Source: a virus
Virus record (IMG/VR): IMGVR_UViG_3300039412_000320
Length of the DNA stretch: 64,000 bases
Reading direction: 5' to 3' (one strand)
Part shown: in pieces, positions 21,512-63,607 of the stretch
Layout of the letters: every line of letters starts with the position of its first letter
How positions within the stretch are numbered: the first letter of the stretch is position 1
Position numbers and translations under genes: made by a program
Notes under the pieces: model-generated
The model's database searches: none
The model's input: only the letters and a program-made list of their open reading frames with translations
What the model was told of the DNA's origin: nothing

Positions 21512-22202
21512 TTTTTCTGGCATGAGCCACAAACTCTTCCTTTGAAAGGTCCTTTTTCATCCAATTACATGTACCACACGAGGCCACACAGTTAATGCTA
21601 GTGTATCCAACCCTGTTATCTAGTCTATCTATACCATTATAAACAAAGGTAGAATAATCAAATGTACGTTTTAATACAAAGGTGTTACTTGGAGGCTCTC
21701 CACACCAAAAACACTTTGCTTTAAGCAGAGATACAACATCTTCTCTTTTCAGATTCCAAGTTATTTGGCGCACACTCGCACCACGTTTATATTGAGAGAT
21801 AATTTGGTTGGTGGCGGCATCTTCTACGGAAAGCCGTACCTGTGCTCTTCGTGAGCATTTTTTGCAATTTCTCATTCCTCCTGATGTAATCCTACTCCCC
21901 GATACCACCAAACAGACCCCGCAATCGCATCGAACACTCCATGTATAGTTTCCGCTTTCGTTTATACCCGCCTTTCCTATAACAGTAAGCTTTCCAAATC
22001 TTTGATTTGAAAGGTCAATATGACCCCTACACCCACAACTTTTAGTCTTTTTTCCAAGCAACTTTCCACTTGATATAGTTTTAATCGTACCACAGTCGCA
22101 CCGTACTTTCCATGCGGCATAAGCCCCCTGATACCCATCCCTAGAAATAACACTAAGCTTCCCAAAACGCTTTCCTGTCAAGTTAACGCAGCGTGGTCCC
22201 AT
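21474..22202 (-). CDS. His-Me finger (HNH-like) homing endonuclease, paralog family A
   Basis: LTGKRFGKLSVI...CDCG...KSCGC... and C-terminal YNGIDRLDNRVGYTSINCVASCGTCNWMKK. Confidence 0.7.
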   Translation of the reverse strand: MGPRCVNLTGKRFGKLSVISRDGYQGAYAAWKVRCDCGTIKTISSGKLLGKKTKSCGCRGHIDLSNQRFGKLTVIGKAGINESGNYTWSVRCDCGVCLVVSGSRITSGGMRNCKKCSRRAQVRLSVEDAATNQIISQYKRGASVRQITWNLKREDVVSLLKAKCFWCGEPPSNTFVLKRTFDYSTFVYNGIDRLDNRVGYTSINCVASCGTCNWMKKDLSKEEFVAHARKITLQHPERQSQN

Positions 22203-22822: not shown

Positions 22823-23107
22823 TTAGTCACCCTCCGTAACGCTCCTTGGGGGCAAGGGCCGCTCTACTTCTTGTAGAGGCCAGAGCTTGTCCCCCTCCTT
22901 CGCTTCGACTGACAACGTGGCGTTCCCCGACTCGTTGACCCCCACTTTAGCTACTTGGTCATCGGGTATCAACCGGGCGGCTCCGATGGCCTTGTGGATA
23001 TAGAAGAGCGACTGCCCCTCCTCCGGGTCGATTCCTCGCCGAGCGTAGGATTCCACCACGAATGCTAGGTACTTGTGCAGGTCGTCCTGCAAGACTAGGA
23101 TTCTCAT
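22823..23107 (-). CDS. Hypothetical protein
   Basis: 94-aa ORF whose start overlaps the stop of the upstream HNH gene (ATGA). Confidence 0.4.
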   Translation of the reverse strand: MRILVLQDDLHKYLAFVVESYARRGIDPEEGQSLFYIHKAIGAARLIPDDQVAKVGVNESGNATLSVEAKEGDKLWPLQEVERPLPPRSVTEGD

Positions 23108-23667
23108 TTTTTCCCCTTAAGATTGTGAGCAACTCTCATTACCCAAAGAATAAAATCATCATATGACATACTAGATTTAGCTCGATTGCAAATTTTACAG
23201 CAAGAGACCACATTTTCAGGAATATACCCAATGGTGTTGTTTATGCGGTCAATTCCGTTATATGTAAACGACCTATCTCCCCCCTTTGAGAACTTCTTCA
23301 TGGATGGAGGTATACCACAATAACGACAATTACCGCTCATAAGACTATCAAACAAAACATCATCTATCCCATACTGCAAACCACGCCTCTTTGCCGCCGC
23401 TTTGTATCTAAGCAAAATCTGATTTCTAGCGGGGTTGCCCTGACATCGCTCACATCCCAATTTAGCTGTTACCTCCGATTGAAAGCAACCACAACTTTTA
23501 GTTCGCTGTAGGCGTAAGTTAGTTCCTGAAAATGAGCCTATTTTACCACAAGAGCATCTACAAACCCAAGCTGCTTGTTTGGTTTTTTTAAAGTTATCCC
23601 GATAAAGAACAAGCAGTCTGCCAAATGTTTGTCCGGTTAAATCCTTTAATGCCCAACCTGAACCCAC
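23104..23667 (-). CDS. His-Me finger (HNH-like) homing endonuclease, paralog family A
   Basis: LTGQTFGRLLVL...CSCGK...KSCGC and YNGIDRINNTIGYIPENVVSCCKICNRAK. Confidence 0.7.
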   Translation of the reverse strand: MGSGWALKDLTGQTFGRLLVLYRDNFKKTKQAAWVCRCSCGKIGSFSGTNLRLQRTKSCGCFQSEVTAKLGCERCQGNPARNQILLRYKAAAKRRGLQYGIDDVLFDSLMSGNCRYCGIPPSMKKFSKGGDRSFTYNGIDRINNTIGYIPENVVSCCKICNRAKSSMSYDDFILWVMRVAHNLKGKK

Positions 23668-41698: not shown

Positions 41699-42406
41699 AT
41701 GGTATTTAGAATATACGCAATGAAAATCAGAAGTCACACCACCGAGAAAAGCTGGATTGTCTACCTTATAACCAACAAAGTAAATGGGAAGGTGTATGTT
41801 GGTCAAACATCCTGTGGTTTGAAAAGGCGATGGGCACTCCATTGTTCCCCCTCGGCGGGAAACAAACATCTGTTGAACTCTATTCGTAAATATGGCCGTG
41901 ATTCCTTTGAAATCAGCATTATCCACGGTCCGGGGCTTACCTTTGAAGAATCTAGCACCTTAGAGAAACGGGAAATATCTAAGAGGAAGTCAACCGACCA
42001 CCAATTCGGATACAACCGAAGTACGGGGGGTGAAGGAGGTGCTAATGGTATGAGATTCCCCTCCGAAACTTACCCCAAAAGATTGGGTAGAAAATGCTCT
42101 GTCGAAACCATCAAAAAACTACGGGATGCTGCAATTGGCAGAAAGTGCTCACCCGAAACAAGAGTGAAATTGAGGCTGGCACTAAAGGGTAAGAAACCAT
42201 CTGCTAAGGCTATAGAAAACTCCCGTAATGTGTGGATTGGAAGAAAGCACTCACCGGAATCGAAAAGAAAAATAGGGGCGGCACAAAGGGAAGTTAGGGA
42301 GGTAAAACCGAGAACACCTGAAACAATTACTAAACTGAAAGCGGCTTGGAAACGACGTAAATTAAAAAACCCAGAAATGGTGTTCCCGTTTCAAAAGGAA
42401 AAATAG
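41699..42406 (+). CDS. GIY-YIG homing endonuclease
   Basis: WIVYLITNKVNGKVYVGQTSCGLKRRWALH is nearly identical in its GIY-YIG core to the ORF at 15674-16450. An alternative start lies at ATG 41720. The stop abuts the helicase start (TAGTATG). Confidence 0.8.
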   Translation: MVFRIYAMKIRSHTTEKSWIVYLITNKVNGKVYVGQTSCGLKRRWALHCSPSAGNKHLLNSIRKYGRDSFEISIIHGPGLTFEESSTLEKREISKRKSTDHQFGYNRSTGGEGGANGMRFPSETYPKRLGRKCSVETIKKLRDAAIGRKCSPETRVKLRLALKGKKPSAKAIENSRNVWIGRKHSPESKRKIGAAQREVREVKPRTPETITKLKAAWKRRKLKNPEMVFPFQKEK

Positions 42407-45399: not shown

Positions 45400-48282
45400 A
45401 TGACTTTGAAGAGTGGTGCTGTTACGCCGTTTCAAGAATATATCTATAAAAGTAGGTATGCCCGTTGGCTTCCTGAGAAGAGTCGTCGGGAAGACTGGTC
45501 TGAAACCGTTCACAGATACATCGAATTTATATCCAAGAGAATCCCCGCCGACGTTCGAGAAGAAACTTCAAAAGAGTTGGAAAATGCTATACTCAATCTG
45601 GAAGTCATGCCCTCCATGCGAGCCATGATGACCGCAGGAAAGGCGCTCGAAAAGGATGAAGTCGCCGCTTATAATTGCAGCTTTTTGGCTATTGATGACC
45701 CCCGTGCATTTGACGAAGCGATGTATATCAGTATGTGCGGTGTAGGCTTGGGTTTCTCCGTAGAGCGCCAATATGTAAATCAACTCCCCACCGTCGCCGA
45801 AAATTTCTATCCCGTTGAGACCATCATCAAAATTCGTGATTCCAAAATTGGCTGGGCTTCCGGTTTCCGCCAACTCATCGCTTTGCTCTACGGTGGTTCA
45901 ATCCCGCAATGGGACCTCTCCTCCGTCCGCCCGGCTGGTATGCCGCTCAAGACCTTCGGCGGCAGGGCATCCGGGCCGGGACCGTTAGACCGCCTCTTCA
46001 AGTTCACTGTTCAGCTTTTCAAGAATGCAGCTGGGCGCAAGCTCACGTCTCTCGAATGCCACGACCTCATGTGCATGGTAGCCGACATCGTGGTTTCAGG
46101 TGGTGTGCGCCGGTCGGCAATGATATCCCTCTCCAATTTATCCGATGACCGGATGCGCAACGCCAAGAACGGTCAGTGGTGGATTGAAAATCCGCAACGG
46201 GCCTTAGCCAACAACTCCGCCGTCTACACCGAAAAACCAGAGATGGTCACCTTCATCCGGGAGTGGTTGTCACTTTGTGAGAGCCGGTCCGGGGAGCGGG
46301 GCATCTACAACCGGGATGCTGCCGTCAAGAAAGCCAAGTCCGTGGGTCGCCGTAAGTGGGAGGGGATTGAGTTTGGAATCAACCCGTGTGGCGAAATTAT
46401 ACTTAGAAGTAAGGGTCTATGTGTATCAAAACAAACCCCCTTAATTACAAAATTAGGGATTATAAAAATAGGTGAAAATGTTGGAAAGACTGTTTCGGTG
46501 TGGAATGGAAAGGGCTGGTCGGACGTTGTTATCCGCCAGACTGGTTCATTACAACAGCTATTGCGTGTTACTTTATCTGATGGTTCTTACTTGGATTGCA
46601 CCCCTGACCACGGGTTCTCAGTAAAGACTAGATTTCAAAAAAATTGGAAACGGGTGGAAGCTAAAAACTTAATGAAGTATAGCAAATACCCCGTTCAGGT
46701 CGAACCTACAAAGATTGTTTCTTCAAAGGATGGAAACTGTATTAATCACGCTTATACCCTTGGTTTTTGCGTTGGTGACGGCAGTAGTAACGGGGATTCT
46801 AGTATTGTTACTGCTGACTTATATGGTCGTAAAGACCAGACCCTGCCCCTGGCAGGAAGTCGTGCGAAAGTACGCCGGAAACCGGGGTATAGTGTTGATA
46901 GTCAAAGAATCTCCTGCACAAAGTTTGTAGATGTCTCTTTAATGAAAGCCTTGAAAACAGATCATACGGCACTAGATAGGCTGTTCTTGTGGAATAAGAA
47001 ATCGGTTTTAGAGTTTGTGGCTGGGTGGATGGATGCCGATGGCTCTGAGACTGGAACAGGAGGAGTGCGCTTGTATATATCCGGTGAGCTTCGTGCTCGA
47101 AAGATGCAACTTCTTTTGACTAAACAAGGGATACGTTCATTGGTAAATTTGTGTGAGTCGGCAGGAATTAAGACCAACTACGGGGTTCGTAGTGATGATT
47201 TGTGGTACCTTCAAATAACAGATTGCTCTAATATCCCCAGTCATAGAGTGAATACAAAGGGTGGGCATATCCCAAGGTTTAAGGGGAAATATCAGATTGT
47301 TCGCAGCGTTGTTCCACTGCCGGGACGGCATGATGTTTTCTGTTTCTCCGAACCTGAGAAACATATGGCTCTCTTTGCTAATGTTCTGACATATCAATGC
47401 AATCTCACCGAGGTTGTCTGCCGTCCGTCCGACGACGCCGTCAGCCTTGAACGTAAAATATGCCTTGCGGCGATTCTAGGCACCCTACAATCGACGTTAA
47501 CGGAATTTAGGTACCTGCGTAAGGATTGGCAGCGAAACGCCGAGGAAGAGCGCTTATTGGGCGTTTCACTCTCGGGAATCATGGACAACCGGCTGCTCTC
47601 CACCAACAGCAAGGAGCTTGCTCCCCTTCTGGACCACCTCCGTCAACACGCTGTCGCCGTTAACGTGGAGTGGGCAGGGAAGCTGGGCATCACCCCCTCC
47701 GTCGCCGTTACCTGTGTCAAGCCGTCCGGCACGGTCAGCCAACTGGTCAACTGCTCGCCAGGCATCCATACGAGGTTTAGCGAATACCTCGTGCGGGCTA
47801 TCCGGGAAGACCGTAAAAATCCCATTGGGGCATTCCTCAAGGCATGTGGAGTTCCCAATGAGCCAGATGTTACGAAACCCAACGATGTGGATGTGTTCTT
47901 CTTCCCCTTGGCTTCCCCCGAGGGGTCTATCACTCGGAACAAGCTGACGGCTATTGAACAGCTTGAACTCTACCTCACTTACCGGCAGCACTGGACCGAA
48001 CACAACCCCAGTACGACCATCTATGTCCGGGACCACGAGTGGTTGGAAGTGGCTACATGGGTCTACAAGCACTTTGACCAAATCGGCGGGATAGCATTCC
48101 TTCCATTCACCAACCACATCTATAAGCAGGCTCCCTACACGGAGGTATCCGAAGTGGAGTATCGGGCGGCTAGTCTTAAGATGCCGGAAATAGACTGGTT
48201 AAAGCTTCCTGAATTTGAGAAAGATGACCACACCACGGCGATGAAGGAAGTTGCTTGCTCTGGAAACAGTTGCGATATATAA
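45400..48282 (+). CDS. nrdJ: Class II (adenosylcobalamin-type) ribonucleotide reductase, interrupted by an intein
   Basis: Extein motifs GGVRRSAMISLSNL and NPCGEIILRSKGL...CNLTEV match the NrdJ active-site pattern NPCGE(x8)CNL. A 326-aa insertion sits exactly before the CNL cysteine. Confidence 0.8.
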   Translation: MTLKSGAVTPFQEYIYKSRYARWLPEKSRREDWSETVHRYIEFISKRIPADVREETSKELENAILNLEVMPSMRAMMTAGKALEKDEVAAYNCSFLAIDDPRAFDEAMYISMCGVGLGFSVERQYVNQLPTVAENFYPVETIIKIRDSKIGWASGFRQLIALLYGGSIPQWDLSSVRPAGMPLKTFGGRASGPGPLDRLFKFTVQLFKNAAGRKLTSLECHDLMCMVADIVVSGGVRRSAMISLSNLSDDRMRNAKNGQWWIENPQRALANNSAVYTEKPEMVTFIREWLSLCESRSGERGIYNRDAAVKKAKSVGRRKWEGIEFGINPCGEIILRSKGLCVSKQTPLITKLGIIKIGENVGKTVSVWNGKGWSDVVIRQTGSLQQLLRVTLSDGSYLDCTPDHGFSVKTRFQKNWKRVEAKNLMKYSKYPVQVEPTKIVSSKDGNCINHAYTLGFCVGDGSSNGDSSIVTADLYGRKDQTLPLAGSRAKVRRKPGYSVDSQRISCTKFVDVSLMKALKTDHTALDRLFLWNKKSVLEFVAGWMDADGSETGTGGVRLYISGELRARKMQLLLTKQGIRSLVNLCESAGIKTNYGVRSDDLWYLQITDCSNIPSHRVNTKGGHIPRFKGKYQIVRSVVPLPGRHDVFCFSEPEKHMALFANVLTYQCNLTEVVCRPSDDAVSLERKICLAAILGTLQSTLTEFRYLRKDWQRNAEEERLLGVSLSGIMDNRLLSTNSKELAPLLDHLRQHAVAVNVEWAGKLGITPSVAVTCVKPSGTVSQLVNCSPGIHTRFSEYLVRAIREDRKNPIGAFLKACGVPNEPDVTKPNDVDVFFFPLASPEGSITRNKLTAIEQLELYLTYRQHWTEHNPSTTIYVRDHEWLEVATWVYKHFDQIGGIAFLPFTNHIYKQAPYTEVSEVEYRAASLKMPEIDWLKLPEFEKDDHTTAMKEVACSGNSCDI
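46420..47397 (+). mobile_element. Intein with LAGLIDADG homing endonuclease domain inside nrdJ
   Basis: Begins CVSKQTPLITKLGII (intein block A). Contains LGFCVGDGSS and VAGWMDADGSETG (LAGLIDADG motifs). Ends ...DVFCFSEPEKHMALFANVLTYQ with a C-terminal Gln instead of Asn, followed by the +1 Cys of CNL. Confidence 0.8.
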
Positions 48283-48332: not shown

Positions 48333-49091
48333 ATGAAACAAGTATGTGGAGTTTACTGTATTTCTCTTGTTAATACAGAGCGCAACTATGTCGGGCAAGC
48401 CAAAGATGTTTTCAAACGTTGGAGGGAGCATCGGTGGGCTTTATCTAAGGGTGTGAATAAATCCAAAAGATTGCAAAGGGCGTGGAACAAATACGGTTCC
48501 GCTGCTTTTCTATTTAGGGTTTTGGAAGAATGTCCGTGCGACCCACTTGTGTTACTTACGAGAGAACAATATTGGATTGATGAACTTCAAGCCCACAAGA
48601 AAGGATTTAACTGTTCTCCGGTTGCTGGTTTGTCTACCTTGGGGGTTAAGTTTTCCGCTTCAACTAAGGCTAAGATATCAGAAAAAGCCAAAGGAAGGGT
48701 GATATCGGAAGAAACAAGAAGGAAAATTAGTGATGCCTTGAAGGGTCGATTATTTTCCTCAGAGCATAGGGCTCGATTATCGAAGGTAAGTACTCAAAGA
48801 ATGCTTACCTCTCCTGATAGATTTATTATCGGAAAGTGGTCTCACAACCACCCTCGTTTTGGAAAGGACAACTCGTTTTATGGTAAGCATCACTCGGATG
48901 ATGTAAAATTAATAATGTCAGAAAAACATCAAGGGAAAACAGCCTCTTCTGAGCTTTGTGCTTTACGCTCTAAAAATGCAACTGGGAAAAACAACCCCAT
49001 GTTTGGAAGAAAACATTCAGAAGAGACTAAGGAAAAAATTAGGCAAGCCCGAATTTTACGGGTTACGAGTATTGTAAGACAGGAAAGCTGA
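48333..49091 (+). CDS. GIY-YIG homing endonuclease with NUMOD3-like repeats
   Basis: GVYCISLVNTERNYVGQAKDVFKRWREH is the GIY-YIG motif; it also has repeated S(E/P)ETRRKIS / HSEETKEKIRQAR modules. It sits immediately downstream of nrdJ. Confidence 0.8.
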   Translation: MKQVCGVYCISLVNTERNYVGQAKDVFKRWREHRWALSKGVNKSKRLQRAWNKYGSAAFLFRVLEECPCDPLVLLTREQYWIDELQAHKKGFNCSPVAGLSTLGVKFSASTKAKISEKAKGRVISEETRRKISDALKGRLFSSEHRARLSKVSTQRMLTSPDRFIIGKWSHNHPRFGKDNSFYGKHHSDDVKLIMSEKHQGKTASSELCALRSKNATGKNNPMFGRKHSEETKEKIRQARILRVTSIVRQES

Positions 49092-51202: not shown

Positions 51203-51281
51203 ACTCCGGTGAGTCGAGCGGCTAAGACACCTGCCTTACAAGCAGGTAAACTCGTGGGTTCGAGTCCCACCCGGAGTACCA
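51203..51281 (+). tRNA. tRNA, anticodon UAC (Val) by manual fold
   Basis: Acceptor ACTCCGG/CCGGAGT. Anticodon arm CCTGC-CTTACAA-GCAGG has a loop identical to E. coli tRNA-Val(UAC). T arm GTGGG-TTCGAGT-CCCAC. CCA is encoded. Confidence 0.75.
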
Positions 51282-51292
51282 AAATTAAATAT

Positions 51293-51370
51293 GCCCCGGT
51301 AGCTTAGTGGCTTCAAAGCGCCACCTTCACACGATGGAGAACACAGGTTTGAGTCCTGTTCGGGGCACCA
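51293..51370 (+). tRNA. tRNA, anticodon CAC (Val?) by manual fold
   Basis: Acceptor GCCCCGG/TCGGGGC. D stem GCTT/AAGC. Anticodon arm CCACC-TTCACAC-GATGG (one mismatch). T arm ACAGG-TTTGAGT-CCTGT. CCA is encoded. Confidence 0.7.
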
Positions 51371-51604
51371 AGTTCTGGTTGACAGTAATGTCTACCAGAT
51401 GTCAACGTATACGGCTAATCCGGCTGACGACCGGTGTTATCGGCGACTTACGTTAAGAGCCGCCCTGTTTTAAGCCTTGTGGCGGGTAACCGCAGCGGTC
51501 ATAGACGACTGTAAATAGAAGGGCATCCAAGGCTGGCCTCTCCCGTTCGATTTGGGATACTGTGCTCATGGGTATGGTAAGCCAGCCCACAAGGCGAAAG
51601 ATTT

Positions 51605-51678
51605 GCAGGGGTAGCACAATGGCAGTGCGGGACGTTGCCAACGTTCATACGGGAGTTCGATTCTCCTCCTCTGCTCCA
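51605..51678 (+). tRNA. tRNA-Gly (GCC)
   Basis: Acceptor GCAGGGG/CCTCTGC. D arm GCAC-AATGGCA-GTGC. Anticodon arm GGACG-TTGCCAA-CGTTC. T arm GGGAG-TTCGATT-CTCCT. CCA is encoded. Confidence 0.85.
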
Positions 51679-51685
51679 AGTTTGT

Positions 51686-51759
51686 GGGGCCATCGTCTAA
51701 TGGGAGGACTTCTGCCTTGCACGCAGAAAACCGGGGTTCGACCCCCCGTGGTTCCACCA
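51686..51759 (+). tRNA. tRNA-Ala (UGC)
   Basis: Acceptor GGGGCCA/TGGTTCC with G3:U70. Anticodon arm TCTGC-CTTGCAC-GCAGA. T arm CGGGG-TTCGACC-CCCCG. CCA is encoded. Confidence 0.85.
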
Positions 51760-51763
51760 AAGT

Positions 51764-52312
51764 TTAGGCATACTTAGACATCCCTCGGGATTGTCTTCCG
51801 TTGCCTTTATTTCGACCACAGAAAGTTGGAGTCTGGCTGTTGCAGTTTGGACAAGTTAAGCGGACGTTGTCTGGTTTACAGTTTCCAGCATCTCCATCAA
51901 TGTGGTCTACGACTGGAATAAGGGGTTTGTTGCACCAAACGAGCAGCATACCGCAGATTTCACAGTTATTTCCTCTTTTTGAGATGAGGATTTTGCGGAT
52001 GGTTTTTCGGTGCTTGACTCCCCCTAGTTCAAACTGTTCTAGGGCCTTTGCATGGAGGTAGTGCCCACGTCCTTTCGGTTCTGGTTTCGGTTTTTTTGGT
52101 CTCTTTGCGTTGCTTGCTTTTGCCGAACAAGAACTGGAGCAATATGTGTTATCAAACCGTTTGTTGTAGGGGATGGATGCTTCGCATACGGGGCAACGTT
52201 TAGGGCTGAGCATGTATTTAGCTTCATTTTTAGCAGTCCGGCTCTTGTTGCTGCATGCTAGCGAACAATAGATGTGGTTTGCTGGTGTATTACAGACTGG
52301 GCATTGATTCAT
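51764..52312 (-). CDS. HNH homing endonuclease
   Basis: VDHIDGDAGNCKPDNVRLTCPNCN is the classic HNH core; there are several CxxC pairs upstream. Start placed at the internal Met (MNQCPVCN). The longer ORF-track start at 52363 would overlap the tRNA-Gly at 52326. Confidence 0.65.
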   Translation of the reverse strand: MNQCPVCNTPANHIYCSLACSNKSRTAKNEAKYMLSPKRCPVCEASIPYNKRFDNTYCSSSCSAKASNAKRPKKPKPEPKGRGHYLHAKALEQFELGGVKHRKTIRKILISKRGNNCEICGMLLVWCNKPLIPVVDHIDGDAGNCKPDNVRLTCPNCNSQTPTFCGRNKGNGRQSRGMSKYA

Positions 52313-52325
52313 AGTTGTTTTTTGG

Positions 52326-52400
52326 GCGGGATTGATGTCAATGGTAGCATGCCACGCTTCCAACGTGGTCGTACCGATTCGACTTCGGTATCCCGCTCCA
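52326..52400 (+). tRNA. tRNA-Gly (UCC)
   Basis: Acceptor GCGGGAT/ATCCCGC. Anticodon arm CCACG-CTTCCAA-CGTGG. T arm ACCGA-TTCGACT-TCGGT. CCA is encoded. Confidence 0.85.
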
Positions 52401-52446
52401 ACCTCCTATAAAAGGAGGTCGAAAGTCGGTTTTCGCTAAAGTTTAG

Positions 52447-52520
52447 GCGGGTATGGTATATTGGGTGTGCCCAACCTTCCCAAGGTTGTGAAACGGATTC
52501 GATTCCCATGTCCCGCTCCA
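52447..52520 (+). pseudogene. Degenerate tRNA-Gly-like element (anticodon CCC), probable pseudo-tRNA
   Basis: Its ends (GCGGGTA...GTCCCGCTCCA) match the neighbouring Gly tRNAs and it has a clean anticodon arm CAACC-TTCCCAA-GGTTG. The T stem (ACGGA/CCCAT) does not pair and acceptor pairs 6 and 7 are mismatched. It also contains TGGTATATT, an extended -10-like sequence. Confidence 0.4.
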
Positions 52521-52681
52521 AGATTGTAGTCACTCTAAGGGCTGTCGAAGCTGACGAGTGGCGAGGTTCTACCAGCAGGGTCCCTCAGTAAGGGGGACTG
52601 TGGTGGTTCCCCTGAAAAGGGACCCCGAGCAGTAGAACCTGCGGATGACTAGCTTAACCAGCCGGTTGTCCCGAATTTTGC

Positions 52682-52783
52682 GGGTGTAGCTTAATCAGAG
52701 CGGTGGTCCACCAGACCACGCCGTGTCCGGGCTTGATATCAAGTCAGGCATGTTGTACCGGCTGAACGCCGGTCGCCCGCTCC
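52682..52783 (+). ncRNA. tRNA-Gly-like element with a ~37-nt insertion between the anticodon arm and T arm
   Basis: It shares its 5' end GCGGGTGTAG and 3' end CGCCCGCTCCA with tRNA-Gly(CCC) at 58750. The acceptor pairs, the anticodon-like arm is GTGGT-CCACCAG-ACCAC, the T-like arm is ACCGG-CTGAACG-CCGGT, and there is a long extra region containing the palindrome CTTGATATCAAG. Confidence 0.4.
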
Positions 52784-52790
52784 AGTTTGT

Positions 52791-52865
52791 GGGCCTGTAG
52801 CTCAGCGGGAGAGCGCTTGCTCGACAAGCAAGAGGTGGTAGGCTCGACCCCTACCGGGCGCACCA
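52791..52865 (+). tRNA. tRNA, anticodon GAC (Val?) with C33
   Basis: Acceptor GGGCCTG/CGGGCGC (6 of 7 pairs). D arm GCTC-AGCGGGA-GAGC. Anticodon arm CTTGC-TCGACAA-GCAAG. T arm GTAGG-CTCGACC-CCTAC. CCA is encoded. The unusual C at position 33 lowers confidence in the anticodon call. Confidence 0.65.
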
Positions 52866-52877
52866 AAGTTTGGGACC

Positions 52878-52958
52878 GGAGCTTAAGCAGAACCTTCTGC
52901 CATCGGAAGAGCGTAGTGTTTACAACACTTGGGGGTGGGAATCCCTCCGGCTCCACCA
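52878..52958 (+). ncRNA. tRNA-like element ending in CCA, non-canonical
   Basis: 3' end CGGCTCC-A-CCA with T-like arm GGGGG-TGGGAAT-CCCTC and a 5' partner GGAGCTT. The interior (hairpins GCAG-AACCTT-CTGC and GTGTT-TAC-AACAC) cannot be folded into a standard cloverleaf by hand. Confidence 0.3.
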
Positions 52959-53044
52959 AGAACGACGCTGGGTTCGTGCTCCAGAAGTGGGTGACACGAC
53001 GCCAAGGAGAGGGGTTAACAGCCCGGAGAGTAGGACCAGCGTCA

Positions 53045-53695
53045 TCAAGTTTTGGGTACGTCGCCTAATGGGATGGCACTTCCCTCGCACGGAAGAACGA
53101 TTGCGGGTTCGACTCCCGCCGTATCCACCAAGTTTTTGAAAGTATATAGTCCATCCTTAGCGATGAAGTGTTCATCTTCATGGCAGGTGGGGCAAAGGAT
53201 TTCAAGGTTTTCAGGTTTGTTGTTTTTTCGATTGCGGTCTATATGGTGAACCCGCAGAACTGGGGTAAAGCGGGCGTATCCACAACGATTGCATTTTTTT
53301 GGATGATGTTTGAATGCAATTTCTCGATACGCCGCTCCACCGTTAGTGTAATGGTCTGGTCTCATATCATGAAATGCCTCACCGGATAGGATAGACTGAG
53401 CGTGGTCTTTACATGCCCGTGAGCAAAAAAGCAGACCAGATTTTGATGCTTTAATTTGAGCGGGGCGTTTTTCAAAGCTAGTAAAGCAAAATGAGCATTT
53501 TACAGTAACTCTTGTTCTACTAGCAACCCCCGAGCACTCTCTTGAGCAGTATTGACCATTAGAGTGTTTGGGTAAGTAAAAAGGCCTTTTGCATGTGGGA
53601 AGTGTACAGTAATGAAGAAACAGCCTTCTTGGCTTCCCATCGTAGAGTGTAGATATTATTGATTCTTCGGGTGGATTTGATATGTCAGTATGCAA
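53045..53695 (-). CDS. HNH homing endonuclease
   Basis: RVHHIDRNRKNNKPENLEILCPTCHEDEH is the HNH core. The stop-to-stop ORF runs across the tRNA-Ala(CGC) gene on the opposite strand. Confidence 0.65.
   Translation of the reverse strand: MHTDISNPPEESIISTLYDGKPRRLFLHYCTLPTCKRPFYLPKHSNGQYCSRECSGVASRTRVTVKCSFCFTSFEKRPAQIKASKSGLLFCSRACKDHAQSILSGEAFHDMRPDHYTNGGAAYREIAFKHHPKKCNRCGYARFTPVLRVHHIDRNRKNNKPENLEILCPTCHEDEHFIAKDGLYTFKNLVDTAGVEPAIVLPCEGSAIPLGDVPKT
53054..53130 (+). tRNA. tRNA-Ala (CGC)
   Basis: Acceptor GGGTACG/CGTATCC with G3:U70. Anticodon arm CTTCC-CTCGCAC-GGAAG. T arm GCGGG-TTCGACT-CCCGC. CCA is encoded. Confidence 0.8.
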
Positions 53696-53737
53696 GTGTG
53701 ATTACCTCCACCTATGTATTTGATAGTTGATTTTCAC

Positions 53738-53811
53738 GGCCTGTTCGTCTATCGGCAGGACAGCAGATTCTCAATCTGTAAAGAGGGGTTCGATTCCCCT
53801 ACGGGCTACCA
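53738..53811 (+). tRNA. tRNA, anticodon CUC (Glu) by manual fold
   Basis: Acceptor GGCCTGT/ACGGGCT. Anticodon arm GCAGA-TTCTCAA-TCTGT. T arm AGGGG-TTCGATT-CCCCT. CCA is encoded. Confidence 0.75.
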
Positions 53812-53818
53812 AATTCAT

Positions 53819-53895
53819 GGGGTCGTAGACAAGTGGCTTAAGTCGCCAGATTCTCAATCTGGAAACCGTGGGTTCAAATCCCATCGGCCCTGCCA
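53819..53895 (+). tRNA. tRNA, anticodon CUC (Glu?) by manual fold; second copy with a different body
   Basis: Acceptor GGGGTCG/CGGCCCT. Anticodon arm CCAGA-TTCTCAA-TCTGG. T arm GTGGG-TTCAAAT-CCCAT. Discriminator G. CCA is encoded. Confidence 0.75.
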
Positions 53896-53907
53896 AGTGG
53901 AGATGTT

Positions 53908-54105
53908 GTGGCAACGTTGACGCTGGACATAAACGAGGAAGCGAAGTTCAAGGCTTGGGAGAAAGAGCACAAGAAAAAGTGCAAACTCCGGCCCGGTACG
54001 TGTGGTGACCTTTACAGCTTCAACATCTGCCCAAGTGGTATTGGGGATTTTATCAGTGTTCACTGCCCGTGTGGAGCACAAGCAGACCTGACGGGAAGTT
54101 TGTAA
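53908..54105 (+). CDS. Small Cys-rich protein (zinc-ribbon-like)
   Basis: 65-aa ORF with a GTG start after GGAG. Contains CKLRPGTCGD...CPSGIGDFISVHCPCG. Confidence 0.35.
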   Translation: MATLTLDINEEAKFKAWEKEHKKKCKLRPGTCGDLYSFNICPSGIGDFISVHCPCGAQADLTGSL

Positions 54106-54375
54106 AAGGCAAGACCATGAGCCTATGGATAACATCATTCACAAACTGCTGGTATACGAGCCAATTCGTATATTTGATGAGTTTAGCCACTGGATTGTGG
54201 TAGGATGGATGATTCTCCATACGTTGAGTTGGGCGATAGTGGAAGGATGCCGACTCTACTGGTCAACGAAAATAAAGATTAGGCGCATTTTCATACAAGA
54301 TGTCGCCGAAGAGTAACGCACCTGTCGCCAAGTGGAAAGGCATAATTTGAACTACCAACCCCCTTTATAGGGGTT

Positions 54376-54888
54376 ATGATGCTTATTTGCAAAAATTGCG
54401 GTGGGTATATTCCATCAAGGGTAAATGTTGATGGGAAAATAAAAAAGCTGAACGGTCGCAGGTATTGTTTATCCTGTAGCCCATTTAAGGGAAAGAAATT
54501 TAATTATGAAACTGACCGGGATGAGAATAGAAATTTCCACTGCCGCTTATGTGGTCAGAACACCGGTCCTCGCAGGCGTATGTGTAATACCTGTGTATCC
54601 CGCATTAGACGTTTTCGAGCTAAACGTACAGCCGTAAAGTGGCTTGGAGGAAAATGCAATCGGTGTGGATGGGTCGGAGACATTGCGGCTTTTGAGTTTC
54701 ACCACCCCGGAGACAACAAAGAGTTCGATATTGGTACGGTTAGTAACAGAGCATGGGCAACGATAGTCAAAGAATTAAAAAAATGTGAATTACTCTGTTC
54801 CAACTGTCATCGTACCGAACATCATGGCATCCGTGATGAGAATTTCTTAAAAATAGCGGATGAATATGGTGGAAAAATTTATGTTTAG
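54376..54888 (+). CDS. HNH homing endonuclease
   Basis: N-terminal CxxC pairs. C-terminal FEFHHPGDNKEFDIG...CELLCSNCHRTEHH is the HNH core. Confidence 0.7.
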   Translation: MMLICKNCGGYIPSRVNVDGKIKKLNGRRYCLSCSPFKGKKFNYETDRDENRNFHCRLCGQNTGPRRRMCNTCVSRIRRFRAKRTAVKWLGGKCNRCGWVGDIAAFEFHHPGDNKEFDIGTVSNRAWATIVKELKKCELLCSNCHRTEHHGIRDENFLKIADEYGGKIYV

Positions 54889-54889
54889 T

Positions 54890-54963
54890 GACTCGGATTC
54901 CGAATGGTTAGGAGGCGGTCTGCAAAACCGTTTAAGTGGGTTCGATTCCCATCCGGGTCTCCA
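54890..54963 (+). tRNA. tRNA-Cys (GCA)
   Basis: Acceptor GACTCGG/CCGGGTC. Anticodon arm GCGGT-CTGCAAA-ACCGT. T arm GTGGG-TTCGATT-CCCAT. CCA is encoded. The gene starts 2 nt after the HNH stop. Confidence 0.85.
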
Positions 54964-54969
54964 GTTTAA

Positions 54970-55046
54970 GCACGGGTACCCAAGCGGCTTAAGGGACAGG
55001 TCCGCAAAACCTGCATTCATAGGTTCAAATCCTATCCCGTGCTCCA
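54970..55046 (+). tRNA. tRNA, anticodon GCA-like (Cys?) with C33
   Basis: Acceptor GCACGGG/CCCGTGC. D arm CCC-AAGCGGCTTAA-GGG. Anticodon arm CAGGT-CCGCAAA-ACCTG. T arm ATAGG-TTCAAAT-CCTAT. CCA is encoded. Confidence 0.65.
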
Positions 55047-55675: not shown

Positions 55676-56026
55676 TGGGGGCGTTCTGGTTTCGACGGGA
55701 GCGCTCATTGCAGGAAGGCACGCCGGGAGGTTACCCTGCCCGTAACAAGGGTTAACAACGCAATTGCCACAGCGCAATATGCATTTGCTTAATCGCTAGA
55801 TTAGGCACGCTTGCTCTGCTTTAGCCTGTCGGGTAGAGGCCAAGCGCCGATAGAGAGGCTGCGACCGGGGATGCAGCCGATATCCGGCGAGATAAAGGCT
55901 TGCACCGTGGTTCTGATATGCCTGTTTCAGCAGAGTCATGGCAAAGAGCAGTACGAAGCAGGATAAGCGTGTAGTCTTCTTGTTGTGACACTTTTCGGAC
56001 CTGGGTTCAAATCCCAGCGCCTCCAC
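55676..56026 (+). ncRNA. ssrA: tmRNA (transfer-messenger RNA)
   Basis: 5' end GGGGGCGTTCTGGTTTCGACGGG matches the tmRNA consensus GGGGCUGAUUCUGGAUUCGACGGG. The 3' tRNA-like end CTGGG-TTCAAAT-CCCAG CGCCTCC A CCA pairs with the 5' end. An internal tag ORF GCA ATT GCC ACA GCG CAA TAT GCA TTT GCT TAA encodes (ANN)AIATAQYAFA*. Confidence 0.8.
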
Positions 56027-56208
56027 CAAAAAATTTATGGCTTCCGCCAAATGTTCCAAATGCAAGCATCGTAAATACAAAAAGCCCTGCACCGTAAGGG
56101 TCAAGGTCAAGGGGTGGATGAAGAGTATCCCGCCCGGATGGCAACAGGATTATGAACCCTGCGGGTGCAAGGAGACGGTGTGAGTAATTGCGACCGCTGA
56201 TATCCATT

Positions 56209-56833: not shown

Positions 56834-56870
56834 ATGTAGTGTGAGATGTAGTGTGAGATGTAAGGTGACG
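56834..56870 (+). repeat. Tandem 12-nt direct repeat (ATGTAGTGTGAG x2 plus a degenerate third copy)
   Basis: ATGTAGTGTGAG ATGTAGTGTGAG ATGTAAGGTGACG, directly downstream of the glycosyltransferase stop and upstream of the RNase P RNA-like element. Confidence 0.6.
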
Positions 56871-56959: not shown

Positions 56960-57205
56960 AAGTTTGGAAAAGGTTTGTGGACTGGACAACTGCTGCCCCG
57001 CAAGGGGGAGAGGAAAGTCGGAGCTACACAGAGCACCGTGCGGGGTAACGCCCCGGCGCAGTAGCAATACTGCGACAATTAGAGCAACAGAGACGAGCCG
57101 GTTAAGTCCGGGTGAAACGGGCAATCTTCACGGGGAGCAATCTCGAATAGGAGGGGATGAACCTGCTCGGTTCGCTATAACCCTCGGGTTGAGAGCTTGA
57201 CCCCC
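56960..57205 (+). ncRNA. rnpB: RNase P RNA-like element (bacterial type A-like, apparently minimised)
   Basis: Collinear matches to E. coli M1 RNA conserved regions. (1) GAGAGGAAAGUCGGAGCUACACAGAGCA matches GGAGGAAAGUCCGGGCUCCAUAGGGCA. (2) Hairpin CGGGG-UAACG-CCCCG matches CCAGG-UAACG-CCUGG, with compensatory changes. (3) GCAACAGAGA is an exact 10-mer. (4) CCGGGUGAAACGGG matches AGGGUGAAAGGGUG. (5) GAUGAACCUGCUCGGUUCGC matches GACAGAACCCGGCUUAUCGG, with AGUCGG/UCGGUU able to form P4. It has a short GCAA-capped P3. Boundaries are approximate. No credible protein ORF covers the region. Confidence 0.45.
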
Positions 57206-57323
57206 CTAGTAATAGGGGGGGCTAGATTGATGGTTGTCGCCTCGCAAGAGGAACAAAACTCCGCTTATAAGTCCACAAATAATTTAGTGATTTGACTACG
57301 GCAACCTTATTAGAGAGATTGCC

Positions 57324-57788
57324 ATGAAACAAAGTAAGTCACAAAAGCGGTTGAATGCGGACTATACAAGACAGTTAGGTATGAGTCCGGGGTCAGCTAC
57401 CCATAAGCTTACTCGAAACCTTCTTTTTAGGTACATCCAACAAAACCACGATGATGTTTGTTATCGCTGTGGTTCAAAGATTGAGACGTTAGCATCTTTT
57501 AGCATTGAACACAAAGAGCCTTGGCGTAATTCGGACCCGAATCTGTTTTGGGATTTAGAAAATATTTCGTTTGCCCATAAAAAATGCAATATTCAGGCAG
57601 CCCAACACATCGGAAAAAGAGTAATAGGTCCACCGGGAACAAGCTGGTGCTCAAATCACAAAATGTTTTTTCCTGTTGATAGGTTTTATAAAAACCGGTC
57701 AATGTGGAATGGGTTACACCGTCAGTGTAAAGAGTGTCATAAAAATTGGAAGAAGGCTTATAGGTCCACAAAATTTTCAGTATTATAG
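57324..57788 (+). CDS. HNH homing endonuclease
   Basis: CYRCGSKIE...FSIEHKEPWRNSDPNLFWDLENISFAHKKCN is an HNH core with a zinc ribbon. Confidence 0.65.
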   Translation: MKQSKSQKRLNADYTRQLGMSPGSATHKLTRNLLFRYIQQNHDDVCYRCGSKIETLASFSIEHKEPWRNSDPNLFWDLENISFAHKKCNIQAAQHIGKRVIGPPGTSWCSNHKMFFPVDRFYKNRSMWNGLHRQCKECHKNWKKAYRSTKFSVL

Positions 57789-58749: not shown

Positions 58750-58826
58750 GCGGGTGTAGTTCAGTCCGGTAGAACGCCAGCTTCCCAAGCTGGATGTCGT
58801 GGGTTCAAATCCCATCGCCCGCTCCA
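58750..58826 (+). tRNA. tRNA-Gly (CCC)
   Basis: Acceptor GCGGGTG/CGCCCGC. D arm GTTC-AGTCCGGTA-GAAC. Anticodon arm CCAGC-TTCCCAA-GCTGG. T arm GTGGG-TTCAAAT-CCCAT. CCA is encoded. Confidence 0.85.
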
Positions 58827-59041: not shown

Positions 59042-59671
59042 ATGGAACCCCTAGTGGGGGGCAATATGCCAAATATAGATTGGATTGGTAGGGAATTTGG
59101 GCTTTGGAGAGTCTTATCCCAAGGTAAGCGGGATGGGTATTTGCTGTGCTTGTGTCAAGGATGTAATAATCAAAAAGAGGTTGGGAAACAGACTCTCAAG
59201 AGAGGGACATCTACAAAATGCTTACAATGTAGGTACCGTAGCCAAAGGGGAAAACAATACCCTTGGGGTCCTCCGCAGTCTTCTCTCTCTGTAGAGGAGA
59301 TTTTTGTTAATAGACTCTTCTATCGGTACCGTCAACATGCAGAAGAACGGGGCCTTGAGTGGAAACTCACGAGAGAGGAGTTCTCCTCTATCATAAAGCG
59401 GGATTGTTACTGGGGCGGCTGTGCTCCGAAGATGAGGTTTATGCGCAAACACAAAAAGGATGTCAAGAGGGGTCGGGATGTTGGGATGATTGCAAATGGT
59501 ATTGACAGGTTGGACAACTCACTGGGGTATACTTTGGACAACACGGTTCCATGTTGCAAGGAGCATAATACCATGAAGTCTTCTCTCCCCGCCAATAGGT
59601 TCTTGGAATTAGTGAAGTCAGTATACATGCTTCATTGCAGGGGGGTTGATGAAAGCTCAGCTTTTGAGTGA
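59042..59671 (+). CDS. His-Me finger (HNH-like) homing endonuclease, paralog family A
   Basis: IDWIGREFGLWRVL...CLCQGCNN...TKCLQC and C-terminal ANGIDRLDNSLGYTLDNTVPCCKEHNTMK. A likely alternative start is ATG 59066 after GGGGGG. Confidence 0.7.
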   Translation: MEPLVGGNMPNIDWIGREFGLWRVLSQGKRDGYLLCLCQGCNNQKEVGKQTLKRGTSTKCLQCRYRSQRGKQYPWGPPQSSLSVEEIFVNRLFYRYRQHAEERGLEWKLTREEFSSIIKRDCYWGGCAPKMRFMRKHKKDVKRGRDVGMIANGIDRLDNSLGYTLDNTVPCCKEHNTMKSSLPANRFLELVKSVYMLHCRGVDESSAFE

Positions 59672-60803: not shown

Positions 60804-62255
60804 ATGCGCAACCCACTGTTGTGTCCAAAGACGGCTATCTTGACTTCACCCAGTTATCTGGAGTCTCTCTATTCCCTCCTTTCGGGTGACCAAAGAAATG
60901 ACCGGTCCGCTTATCTCGAAGCCCGTCAGCATCTTGGCTCCGCCATCAACACCGTATCGGCAAAGATTCCCCCCAAGAGTCGGTTGACCAGAGATATCCG
61001 CTTTGCTCGCTGGGATATGGAGACCGCTAACGCCTTCGCCAAATCGGGAGATTGGGGCGCAGCAGCAGATAGCCAGCTACACGCTGTCTGGAAACTCCAG
61101 AACGTCGTAGCGGCCCTCCAGCGCAGCAAAAAGGCATACGGGTATGATGTTTGTCTTACCGCTGACTCTCAACTTCCGCTGCTGGACGGAACAGAAATAG
61201 CCATAGTTGACCTTCTAGGAAAGGACCATTTCTGGGTTTATTCAATAAACGAGAAGGGAATGCTTAGACCCGGATACGGGCATGACGCCCGACTGGTTGA
61301 AAAAGATGCCCCCCTACTAGAAGTAAGGTTGGACAACGGTAAAACTATAAGGTGTACCTTTACCGAGAGATTTATGCTAAGAGGGGGAGGATACAAACGG
61401 GCAGCAGAACTTATCCCCGGAGATTCCTTGATGCCTCTCTACAGAGACTTGGCTCCGATTGCTTTTGAGGGTAATGAATATGAAAGGACATACGAGCCGG
61501 GTAGAGAATCGTGGAAGTTTACCCATCGTTTTGCGGAAGCTAGATGTCCAAAGGGGTATGTAAGACATCATAAAGATTTGAATCGCTTCAACAATTCCCC
61601 TGACAATCTCGCTGTTATAACTTGGGAAGAACATCAGAAATTGCATCAAGAGTTGGGAGTTCCAGTTACAGATAAAGGGCGGACGGCACGTAGCCGTAAC
61701 ATGTCCAAAATTAACTCTGACCGCAAGGGGAAACCACGTCCTTGGGCACACTTTCCTCATCCGTGGGTGAATAAAGAAGAAAAGGCCAATATTTTGGTGA
61801 AATACAGGGAGTTGTTGGGGGAAGAGGGGTTTGTTGTTGCCCAGAAGCACAGAAGTCAACTAGCTACCCACAAACGCTGGCACACAGACCGCCAGATAGT
61901 CTCTGCCACTTGTTTGCTTTGTGCCTCCGTTAATCATAAGGTGGTATCAGTCGCATCTGCTGGTACTGCTGATGTATATGATTTTATTGTTGATAAGTAT
62001 CATAATTTCGCTTTGAGTGCCGGGGTTTTTGTACATAACAGTGGGCAAACACAGGGAGAAATTTTCAACGGCTCGGAGGCAATTGCCAACCGGGAAAACC
62101 AGAAGAATATTGACGACACGGCACAGCCGTTTGAGCAGCACCAGAATGTTAAAAATCCACTAAATCTAACAAGGGACTGGGAGGCGGAGAACGACTACCC
62201 CTCGCTCGCTGAAAAGAAGAGCAAGCGGATTCACTGGCCTCCCCGACTGAGATAA
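60804..62255 (+). CDS. Small hypothetical protein interrupted by an HNH-containing intein
   Basis: Exteins are aa 1-116 and the last 71 aa. The central 296 aa show intein termini. Confidence 0.65.
61152..62039 (+). mobile_element. Intein with embedded HNH endonuclease domain
   Basis: Begins [21 protein letters not shown] (block A). Internal [27 protein letters not shown] is an HNH motif. Ends [24 protein letters not shown] followed by +1 Ser (block G, HN|S). Confidence 0.75.
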
Positions 62256-63607
62256 TGCCAGCTATCAGAGTCATAGACCCGGTCAACCCCAACTCCGTTT
62301 TCACTATCGACGGCATCCTCGTCACGTATGTGAAGCCGTGGAATAATACCATCACCTATCAGTTTGGCAACGCCCTCACCTACAACGGCTCCTCGTGGAT
62401 TTCGCTCCAGAACAACAACCGGGGCAACACCCCCTTCGTCGGCTCCACGTGGTGGGGTCTCATTGCCCAGAGTGTGACCGGCACGACCGGCCCTACGGGG
62501 CCGCTCGGTGCCACAGGACCGGGAAACTTTACAGGGTATACCGGCTACAGCGGCCCCAGCGGTTTCACGGGTTACACTGGTCCGGGCAATTTTACAGGAT
62601 ATTCGGGTCCGACCGGTTACACTGGAGATTCTGGGCCGACCGGACCTACCGGACCCGGCATAACCGGATATACAGGAACGACCGGACCTACTGGGCCGGG
62701 TAATTTTACCGGTTTCACGGGCTATACGGGGGACAGCGGCCCCACGGGTCCCGGCAACTTTACCGGATATTCGGGGTATACAGGACCGATTGGGCCAGCT
62801 GGGTATACCGGCTATACCGGTCCTGAAAGCACGGGGTACACAGGCTTTACAGGAGCCAGTGGATTCACCGGACCCACCGGACCGGGGAACTTCACGGGTT
62901 ACACTGGTTACACGGGAACGAGCGGCTACACAGGTCCAACTGGACCCGGAAATTCCACAGGTTATACGGGATATTCGGGGGCTACAGGGCCTACCGGACC
63001 GGGCAATTTTACTGGGTCTACAGGCTACAGCGGATATACGGGAGCGACCGGTCCGGGCAATTTTACAGGTTACACAGGATACACGGGTTATACCGGAGTA
63101 ACTGGTTACACTGGACCCAGTGTCACCGGATATACGGGCTATTCAGGATACACAGGTTACACAGGACCCGGTAATTTTACGGGTTACTCAGGTTACACCG
63201 GCTACACGGGACCGATTGGTTATACGGGTTACACAGGCTATACGGGACCTTCATCGGGAGCCATTGTTTTTGTTATTGACGGCAGAGGTTCGGTGCCTGC
63301 CACAGGGTCGTATGGGTATGTTCAAGTTCCCTACAACGCAACCATCACAGGTTGGACATTGCTCGCCAACGCCTCGGGCACAGCACAGATTACCATCAAG
63401 AAATGTACTTATGCAAGCTTCCCCACGACCGCCAGTATTGTAGCGTCTGCTCCTCCCAACTTAAGTGGGCCACAGCAGAATAATACCAGCACTGCGGTAG
63501 ATACGTGGACAAGGACCCTGACGCTGGGGGATGTTTTAGAGTTTAACCTTGACGCCGCCGCAACCGTCAACCGACTGGCGCTGATGCTGGATATTACGAG
63601 GAGCTAA
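62255..63607 (+). CDS. Collagen-like triple-helix repeat protein (probable fibre) with globular C-terminal domain
   Basis: About 250 aa of G-X-(T/S) triplets ([38 protein letters not shown]...) with a recurring GPGNFTGY unit. The start overlaps the previous stop (TAATG). Confidence 0.7.
62500..63250 (+). repeat. Tandem 9-nt-periodic nucleotide repeat encoding the collagen-like region
   Basis: Reiterated GGN TAC ACN / GGN CCN ACN units. They generate long shadow ORFs in the other two forward frames. Confidence 0.7.

Follow-up and report, generated by a model that had tools for sequence, protein, structure and literature searches.

We have found a gene for the RNA of RNase P (rnpB) in viral DNA, in a stretch of 64,000 nucleotides (nt) from the IMG/VR virus record IMGVR_UViG_3300039412_000320; this whole stretch will be called the window. 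The gene belongs to the bacterial class A and occupies positions 56974..57279 of the + strand, from the 5' strand of helix P1 to its 3' strand. The window was scanned for RNAs with 4,227 Rfam families at their curated thresholds, and tRNAs and transfer-messenger RNA (tmRNA) were also searched with ARAGORN. The class A model RF00010 matches 56974-57283 (+) with 185.7 bits and an E value of 2e-58, well above its gathering score of 100 bits. The match spans model positions 1-367, it has no truncation, and RF00010 is the top model of clan CL00002 for this RNA. A first-pass annotation, made from the letters alone, had proposed here a size-reduced rnpB-like RNA beside a tmRNA, and this has turned out to be right: the tmRNA is found at 55677-56028, about 950 nt upstream, with a single open reading frame (ORF) of 210 amino acids in between. 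Its limits for the RNA, 56960-57205, have to be changed. They start 14 nt too early and end 74-78 nt short, so that P18 is missed almost entirely, as are J18/2, an extra hairpin and the 3' strands of P2, P4 and P1; instead of about 250 nt, the RNA has 306-310 nt.

Other classes of RNase P RNA were considered and rejected. Class B (RF00011) is marked by P5.1, P10.1 and P15.1 and by the absence of P6, P16 and P17: the last three are present in the window RNA, and RF00010 is the best model of the clan. An archaeal type A RNA is set aside by a P18 with a GUAA loop, by the bacterial GGU motif in L15 and by the higher score of the bacterial model; the window RNA resembles the archaeal type in the lack of P13 and P14, but that type also lacks P18. 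None of the ORFs which overlap the RNA has homology in Pfam or PHROG. The minimum free energy of the RNA is -125.2 kcal/mol (z = -5.09), about five standard deviations more stable than shuffled sequences, and the corresponding fold reproduces P1, P2, P3, P8, P9, P18 and the extra hairpin.

The helices were mapped from the Rfam alignment and every pair was checked with a script. In what follows index 1 is window position 56974, and all elements are on the + strand. The structure, with square brackets for P4 and braces for P6, is:

((((((((((((((((((.(((((((....)))))))....[[[.[[[[[((((...{{{{{((((((((((.....)))))((((((((....))))))).)((...(((((...........((((......))))........)))..)))))))))))))...((((......((((((..(((((}}}}})))))......)))))).....))))......((((((((....))))).)))..........))))))).((((....)))).......]]]]]]]].).))))))))))....

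All elements of the catalytic core are found: P1-P5, the P4 and P6 pseudoknots, P7-P11, P15-P18, the conserved regions CR-I to CR-V and the GGU motif. The conserved regions read GAGGAAAGUC (CR-I), ACAGAGA (CR-II), GGGUGAAA (CR-III), GAGCAA (CR-IV) and ACAAAACUCCGCUUA (CR-V). The closing helix P1 is formed by index 1-11 with 295 and 297-306 (56974-56984 with 57268-57279), and 8 of its 11 pairs are changed on both sides in relatives. It is followed by P2, index 12-18 with 259-265 (56985-56991 with 57232-57238), and by P3, a short hairpin of 7 bp with a GCAA loop (index 20-26 with 31-37; 56993..57010). Then comes CR-I with the 5' strand of P4, AGGAAAGUCGGAG, at 57011..57023, which lies in the block GAGGAAAGUCGGAGCU (57010-57025); U 57018 is the conserved bulged U. 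In the P4 pseudoknot index 42-44 and 46-50 pair with 286-293, with U45 bulged: AAG-U-CGGAG (57015-57023) is joined to CUCCGCUU (57259-57266). P5 is formed by index 51-54 and 161-164. In the P6 pseudoknot (index 58-62 with 191-195) the sequence GAGCA of J5/7, 57031..57035, pairs with the L17 loop at 57164-57168. The annotation had pointed out five collinear blocks. Four of them were well placed and correspond to CR-I, P8, CR-II and CR-III. The fifth one, GAACCUGCUCGGUUC, had been taken for the 3' strand of P4; in fact it is P17 (index 186-190 with 196-200; 57159-57173), whose loop forms P6 with 57031-57035. Both the P4 pseudoknot and P1, on which the proposal had been made to depend, are formed.

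The specificity domain is reduced to 98 nt, 57036..57133, and contains P7-P11, CR-II, a very small P12 and CR-III. P7 (index 63-67 with 156-160) leads to P8 (index 68-72 with 78-82; 57041-57055), which is the hairpin with a UAACG loop already noticed in the annotation, and to P9 (index 83-90 with 95-103; 57056-57076), which has a GCAA loop. P10/P11 are formed by index 104-113 and 147-155. J11/12, which is CR-II, has the sequence ACAGAGACGAG (index 114-124; 57087-57097); the block GCAACAGAGA (57084-57093) corresponds to the 3' end of the P11 5' strand and J11/12. P12 has only 4 bp and a 6-nt loop (index 125-128 with 135-138; 57098-57111). J12/13, which is CR-III, reads GUGAAACG (index 139-146; 57112-57119) and passes directly into the 3' strand of P11, as seen in the block GGGUGAAACGGG (57110-57121). 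P13 and P14 are absent: there are 0 nt for 43 model positions, with the gap between 57117 and 57118. A lack of most of the specificity domain (P12-P14) had been suggested from the beginning; the loss is limited to P13 and P14, with P12 shortened to 4 bp, and P7-P11, CR-II and CR-III are kept.

On the 3' side, GGAG-CAA at 57134..57140 contains the 3' strand of P5 and J5/15; it is CR-IV, the region equivalent to E. coli A248. The arm P15-P16-P17 extends over 57141..57194, with P15 at index 168-171 and 218-221 and P16 at index 178-183 and 207-212. The 3' side of L15, GGGUU (index 213-217; 57186-57190), has the GGU motif which binds the 3'-CCA of tRNA. P18 (index 228-235 with 240-248; 57201..57221) has a GUAA tetraloop. 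Between P2 and P4, in J2/4, there is an extra hairpin CCUC-GCAA-GAGG (index 267-270 with 275-278; 57240..57251) in a position like that of P19. Finally CR-V, AACAAAACUCCGCUUA, is found at 57252..57267 and contains the 3' strand of P4. Of the elements which the annotation had recommended to look for, P1-P4 and P10/P11 are present; the J2/4 motif differs, since it reads ACAAAA and not ACAGAA.

M1 RNA of E. coli, the RF00010 member with 377 nt, has the same P1-P12 and P15-P18, the same P4 and P6 pseudoknots, CR-I to CR-V, the GGU motif of L15 and GNRA loops on P9 and P18. The window RNA differs from it by its length, the lack of P13 and P14, the P12 of 4 bp, the short P3, the extra GCAA hairpin in J2/4 and by being encoded in a phage. 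In class A RNAs without P13/P14 the interdomain brace L14-P8 is lost. In the window RNA the tetraloop contacts L18-P8 and L9-P1 can still be made.

Relatives were searched with the pattern of a junction without P13/P14, GGTGAAANNGGCAANCNNCNNNNGNAGCAA, which gave 7 viral, 100 metagenome and 45 genome loci (individual loci are named below by an L and a number). With nhmmer and ARAGORN these loci were split into two classes. In class (i) the genes are inside tRNA arrays, and each has from 4 to 19 tRNAs at less than 3 kb; several of their contigs have 41-340 kb and many are in IMG/VR. The closest relatives of the window RNA are all within tRNA arrays. In class (ii) there are few or no tRNA neighbours, mostly none within 3 kb, and the genes are found in cellular metagenome-assembled genomes (MAGs), mostly of Burkholderiales/Betaproteobacteria; one of them is on a contig of 2.2 Mb. 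Class A RNAs without P13/P14 (L143-L187, from genome contigs, and most of L043-L142) are widespread in MAGs of Burkholderiales/Betaproteobacteria and also present in those of Planctomycetia, Omnitrophota, Elusimicrobia and Thermomicrobia.

Covariation was studied in 12 distinct sequences of class (i), aligned with MAFFT, by explicit counts of pairs on the structure derived from the window. Paired cells amount to 86.0%, compared with 72.3 +/- 0.8% in shuffles (0 of 500 reach the observed value) and 34-43% in controls whose partners were slid by 1-3 columns. Both partners have changed in 55 of the 98 pairs, as against 14-26 in these controls, and the covariation score reaches 0.417 where sliding gives 0.06-0.13. 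These figures are to be read with the reservation that the alignment is based on sequence and that the structure was derived from a sequence which is itself in the alignment, which favours it over the slid controls. P4 is 100% paired and 5 of its 8 pairs covary (CGGAG/CUCCG, CCGGG/CCCGG, UCGGGA/UCCCGG), while the bulged U is invariant in the 12 relatives. P6 alternates between GAGCA/UGCUC, GGACA/UGUCC and GGAU/AUCC, with three covarying pairs. P7, P8, P10 and P12 are also 100% paired and covary. The 4-bp P12 appears as CCGG/CCGG, CCAC/GUGG and CCGA/UCGG; besides the window lineage, L056, L041 and L137 have this short form, whereas L012 retains a long P12. The GCAA of J5/15 is invariant in all 12. 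The extra hairpin in J2/4 is present with compensatory changes in five of the loci (L056, L041, L115, L042, L130) and absent in five others (L012, L069, L137, L071, L040).

The lack of P13/P14 is a known natural variation, since it is present in cellular MAGs and was described as 'not unusual' by Lui et al. 2021 (PMC8172020), who reported class A RNAs lacking P13/P14 in bacteria of the Candidate Phyla Radiation. Their absence does not bar the window RNA from class A, as cellular members show the same loss (PMC8172020). The cellular RNAs of Burkholderiales/Betaproteobacteria and other MAGs have the same direct junction of CR-III (GGUGAAA) with the 3' strand of P11, which is common to the 45 genome loci and to most of the 100 metagenome loci. 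They differ from the window gene in that they mostly have 0 tRNAs within 3 kb, and their identity to it does not exceed about 66%. We tried to find a cellular donor by ranking identities, but this was uninformative: the cellular RNAs without P13/P14 (<=66% identical) are no closer than distant phage relatives.

The window is part of a huge tailed phage, because it contains genes of phage families and the same gene order is found on viral contigs of IMG/VR. It covers 64 kb of a genome which probably has more than 300 kb. It encodes a baseplate wedge/Baseplate_J protein of 1,488 amino acids (phrog_6, 1.7e-26), an SLT transglycosylase, a protein of 1,913 amino acids with Ig repeats, a DnaB-like helicase, a member of the phage family phrog_7371 (1.5e-53) and a class II ribonucleotide reductase, split by a LAGLIDADG intein, which matches phage reductases best. 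Copies of the gene in IMG/VR were located by a scan with an exact pattern and then by blastn: RNAs 94% identical to that of the window are found on viral contigs of 316,945 bp (L034) and 75,409 bp (L007), the latter identical to the metagenome contig L132. The order tmRNA - ORF - rnpB is kept in L034 and L007.

Genes for RNase P RNA normally belong to cells, and some 'phage' records with rnpB in the databases are plainly bacterial, so that one may ask whether this region is a piece of a chromosome or megaplasmid, an assembly chimera or a copy of rnpB left at an attachment site. We find this hardly tenable: rnpB lies here between genes of phage families, its arrangement with the tmRNA recurs on contigs classified as viral by IMG/VR from at least two separate metagenome samples, and no close cellular relative of it was found, the cellular sequences recovered being at most 66% identical. 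As for an attachment-site fragment of an integrative element, the window copy is full length and not a 3' portion; no integrase family was matched among the neighbouring ORFs scanned, and the only partial duplicate of rnpB in the window, 17 nt at 57756-57772, was made by an HNH cassette described below.

The presumed substrates of the enzyme are encoded nearby: an array of 12 tRNA genes at 51203..55046 (+), a thirteenth gene, for tRNA-Gly, at 58750-58826 (+) and the tmRNA, also on the + strand and ending in CCA. The 3'-CCA is encoded by all 13 tRNA genes and by the tmRNA, and nucleotide -1 is U in 9 of the 13. On its side the window RNA keeps the GGU motif of L15, which pairs with CCA, and the GCAA of J5/15. 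The tag encoded by the tmRNA, ATAQYAFA*, ends in FA and not in the usual AA. We have also compared the arrays of the window (51203-55046 and 58750) and of L012, L069, L056, L041, L071, L040 and L042: apart from tRNAs for Cys and, in some relatives, for Phe, all of them decode GNN codons (Val, Ala, Gly and Glu, to which relatives add Asp). In the window there are tandem duplicates of Glu(CTC) and of Cys(GCA).

In the relatives rnpB is found at 1-9 nt from the flanking tRNAs. In L036, for example, a tRNA at 6254-6327 and another at 6687-6770 enclose rnpB at 6330-6684; in L012 the corresponding positions are 4381-4452, 4793-4863 and 4462-4786 (all Rfam coordinates). The order Val(TAC)-Gly(GCC)-Ala(TGC) ... 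rnpB-Gly(TCC) is conserved across lineages whose RNase P RNAs are only 62-71% identical, and the immediate neighbours are Ala(TGC) or Cys - rnpB - Gly(TCC). Because of this close spacing and conserved order, we infer that in the relatives with flanking tRNAs the RNA would be transcribed together with them, and that the RNase P cut at the downstream tRNA would free its 3' end.

The analysis shows family membership, fold, conservation, covariation, phage context and substrates which encode CCA, whereas catalysis, transcription, assembly with host RnpA and an advantage for the phage are inferred. We consider it quite probable that the window RNA is an active catalytic subunit which uses the RnpA protein of the host to mature the CCA-encoding tRNAs and the tmRNA of the phage. 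The transcript would fold into the class A core, with P1-P5, P15-P18 and the P4 and P6 pseudoknots, and a reduced specificity domain in which CR-II and CR-III would still provide the junctions that recognize the T loop of tRNA. In the infected cell it would most likely assemble with host RnpA. The regions which contact the protein (P3, P4, J18/2, J2/4) are retained, and bacterial RNase P RNAs and proteins are interchangeable between species. The ribozyme would then remove the 5' leaders from the precursors of the tRNA array and of the tmRNA, with their encoded 3'-CCA docked on the GGU motif of L15. In this way the phage would benefit, as the capacity for tRNA maturation would be kept up while it expresses many tRNAs.

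Several points weigh against an active RNA of this kind, besides the bias of the alignment already mentioned. P3 has one G.G mismatch and P5 one A.G mismatch. CR-V has a G-to-A change (ACAAAA for ACAGAA), yet this change recurs in L040, L115, L042 and L130. A scan for sigma-70 promoters and intrinsic terminators gave only background level, with none beside rnpB. The window gene has no directly flanking tRNAs. No RnpA was found in the 64 kb, in a weak search of the six frames with a hidden Markov model built from three sequences, nor in IMG/VR with an equally weak scan for a degenerate pattern. In GenBank phages the tblastn matches, also a weak search, are bacterial contamination and no bona fide phage RnpA was seen. 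The protein partner is assumed to be host RnpA because no phage RnpA was found.

Some of these points, namely the non-canonical pairs, the change in CR-V and the lack of a detectable promoter, together with the loss of P13/P14 and the shortened P12, could be those of a host rnpB picked up with host tRNA genes and now decaying and without function, which was one of the two alternatives left by the first-pass annotation. We regard it as very improbable. CR-I to CR-V and the P4 and P6 pseudoknots are all intact, the position in tRNA arrays is conserved in lineages 62-71% identical, and P13/P14 have also been lost in cellular genomes (PMC8172020), including that with the 2.2-Mb contig, where the gene is presumably the only copy of the cell. 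A comparison with L034 is also instructive: in nt 1-227 there is one single difference (99.6% identity), whereas a neighbouring ORF is only 80% identical in the two phage genomes; in nt 228-306 there are 17 differences, which include a full but compensatory replacement of the P18 stem. A decayed fragment or pseudogene would be incompatible with these patterns, and it is excluded in particular because of the strong compensatory covariation in the 12 phage-associated relatives, with more than half of the pairs doubly changed. The other alternative, a streamlined RNase P RNA, is the one which the data support.

The window RNA is not an isolated case. RNase P RNA genes inside tRNA arrays are found on many other large viral contigs. 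Some have full-size forms, with 259-277 bits on contigs of 94-369 kb (L036, L015, L026, L022, L039), and L019 has 204 bits. Forms without P13/P14 have 131-209 bits (L012, L056, L040, L071, L115, L137, L042, L130). Two more have full-length class A matches below the gathering score: L031, at 2784-3119 (-) on a viral contig of 385 kb, with 86 bits (E 5.5e-25), and L017, at 489-881 (+) on a viral contig of 80 kb, with 72.9 bits (E 1.6e-20). Being below the Rfam threshold, such genes escape routine annotation. In L031 the same tRNA array contains a GOLLD RNA (5070-5488), and L017 has a two-piece (permuted) tmRNA of the beta type.

A much smaller form is found in L190, at 4070-4332 (-) of IMGVR_UViG_3300020122_000057 (70.8 kb): a 263-nt match to RF00010 with 131.8 bits which adjoins tRNAs. 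In it 25 nt stand in place of 101 model positions (CR-II, P12, CR-III, P13, P14), and P18 has been lost; this would be an RNase P RNA of bacterial type which lacks the module for recognition of the T loop. A subfamily to which it belongs, with L056, L041, L137, L071, L040, L115, L042 and L130, has GAGGAAGUUC in CR-I, where GAGGAAAGUC is almost universal; CR-V has changed to match (CCCGGCUAU), so that P4 still consists of 3 bp, a bulged U and 5 bp.

We are somewhat inclined to conclude that several unrelated lineages of large phages carry genes for RNase P ribozymes in their tRNA arrays, which would be the first virus-encoded RNase P. With similar, modest confidence these RNAs may be placed in a natural series of reduction: full-size forms of about 340-360 nt, forms without P13/P14 of about 325 nt, the window RNA of about 306-310 nt with a vestigial P12, and the 263-nt form. 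A blastn search with the window RNA found nothing in 50,697 GenBank phage records. The same search with two full-size RNAs from phage contigs gave only records which look bacterial or are unannotated. Among these, L188 ('Microcystis phage MaAM05', MW495066.1, 111323-119478) has a partial RNase P-like match among fabI, engB, mtgA and glyS, and this part of the record looks cellular.

The modified specificity domain, its further reduction in other phage lineages such as L190, which has 263 nt and lacks CR-II, P12, CR-III and P18, and the fact that no phage RnpA was found in our weak searches, so that the RNA would have to compete for the host protein, may also suggest that the RNA has ceased to be a general enzyme of tRNA processing: it could capture RnpA as a decoy against host tRNA maturation, or favour phage precursors by an altered choice of substrates. 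This appears unlikely to us. A pure decoy has no need for the bulged U of P4, CR-IV, CR-V, the GGU of L15, CR-II and CR-III, all of which are conserved, and cellular lineages with the same design without P13/P14 evidently use it as a general enzyme.

Minimised RNase P RNAs are known in nature, such as the 'type T' of Pyrobaculum. Those of Mycoplasma fermentans and Thermoproteaceae are also minimised and have no P12 (cited in PMC8172020). Like them, the window RNA has shed peripheral and specificity helices and kept the P4 core; however it is much less reduced, with CR-II, CR-III and a vestigial P12, whereas L190 is far more reduced. The window also resembles the huge phages described with tRNA arrays and tmRNA (PMC7162821; PMC8172020), as it has 13 tRNAs and a tmRNA within 8 kb and follows the same logic, by which a phage brings along components for translation, but RNase P RNA was not described there. 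Lui et al. 2021 state that Rfam gave no hits in their megaphages other than tRNAs and a tmRNA (PMC8172020). Al-Shayeb et al. 2020 report tmRNAs, SmpB, release factors, ribosome recycling factor and the annotation of tRNAs, with no mention of RNase P (PMC7162821), and a 2024 review of RNase P does not mention any phage-encoded RNase P RNA. Full-text literature searches, with incomplete coverage, found no published report of a virus-encoded RNase P RNA; a prior mention is possible.

The window RNA itself belongs to a known family: the interest is in its viral location and in the reduction series. RNase P is counted among the core enzymes of the cell; with a catalytic RNA carried by phages, viral control of translation would reach as far as the maturation of tRNAs. 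If it is active, these phages take over the 5' maturation of tRNAs besides their supply, which would explain how dense phage tRNA arrays are processed during host shut-off. The phage genes also offer small class A ribozymes which have evolved naturally, and with which one may ask to what extent the specificity domain is required. Some of these genes (L031 with 86 bits, L017 with 73 bits) are overlooked when annotation uses the Rfam gathering threshold.

A homing-endonuclease cassette is inserted at 57280..57755 (+), exactly after the final P1 nucleotide of rnpB. It contains an HNH ORF (57324-57788), it is absent from L034, and the 3' end of rnpB, GCUUAUAGGUCCACAAA, is duplicated on the far side of the insert, at 57756-57772. 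Of the 18 differences in rnpB between the window and L034, 17 fall in the 79 nt adjoining the insert. The insertion and these clustered differences look like the co-conversion tract of a homing event which would have targeted a conserved RNA gene.

The window has at least nine free-standing genes for homing endonucleases (GIY-YIG or HNH), at 3268-3936, 15674-16450, 20259-20861, 21474-22202, 23104-23667, 41699-42406, 48333-49091, 57324-57788 and 59042-59671. This is a very high density of mobile endonucleases for 64 kb: four are GIY-YIG and five HNH/EndoVII, and there are in addition two genes with inteins, within 45400-48282 and 60804-62255. In the spacer of 153 nt upstream of rnpB a 12-nt tandem repeat, ATGTAGTGTGAG, is present in 2.4 copies at 56834-56868, its only occurrence in the window. 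The leaders of several tRNAs and that of rnpB contain an 'AAGTTT' motif, for which the window shows no enrichment. An ORF of 450 amino acids at 62255-63607 has collagen triple-helix repeats (Pfam Collagen, E 9.8e-20).

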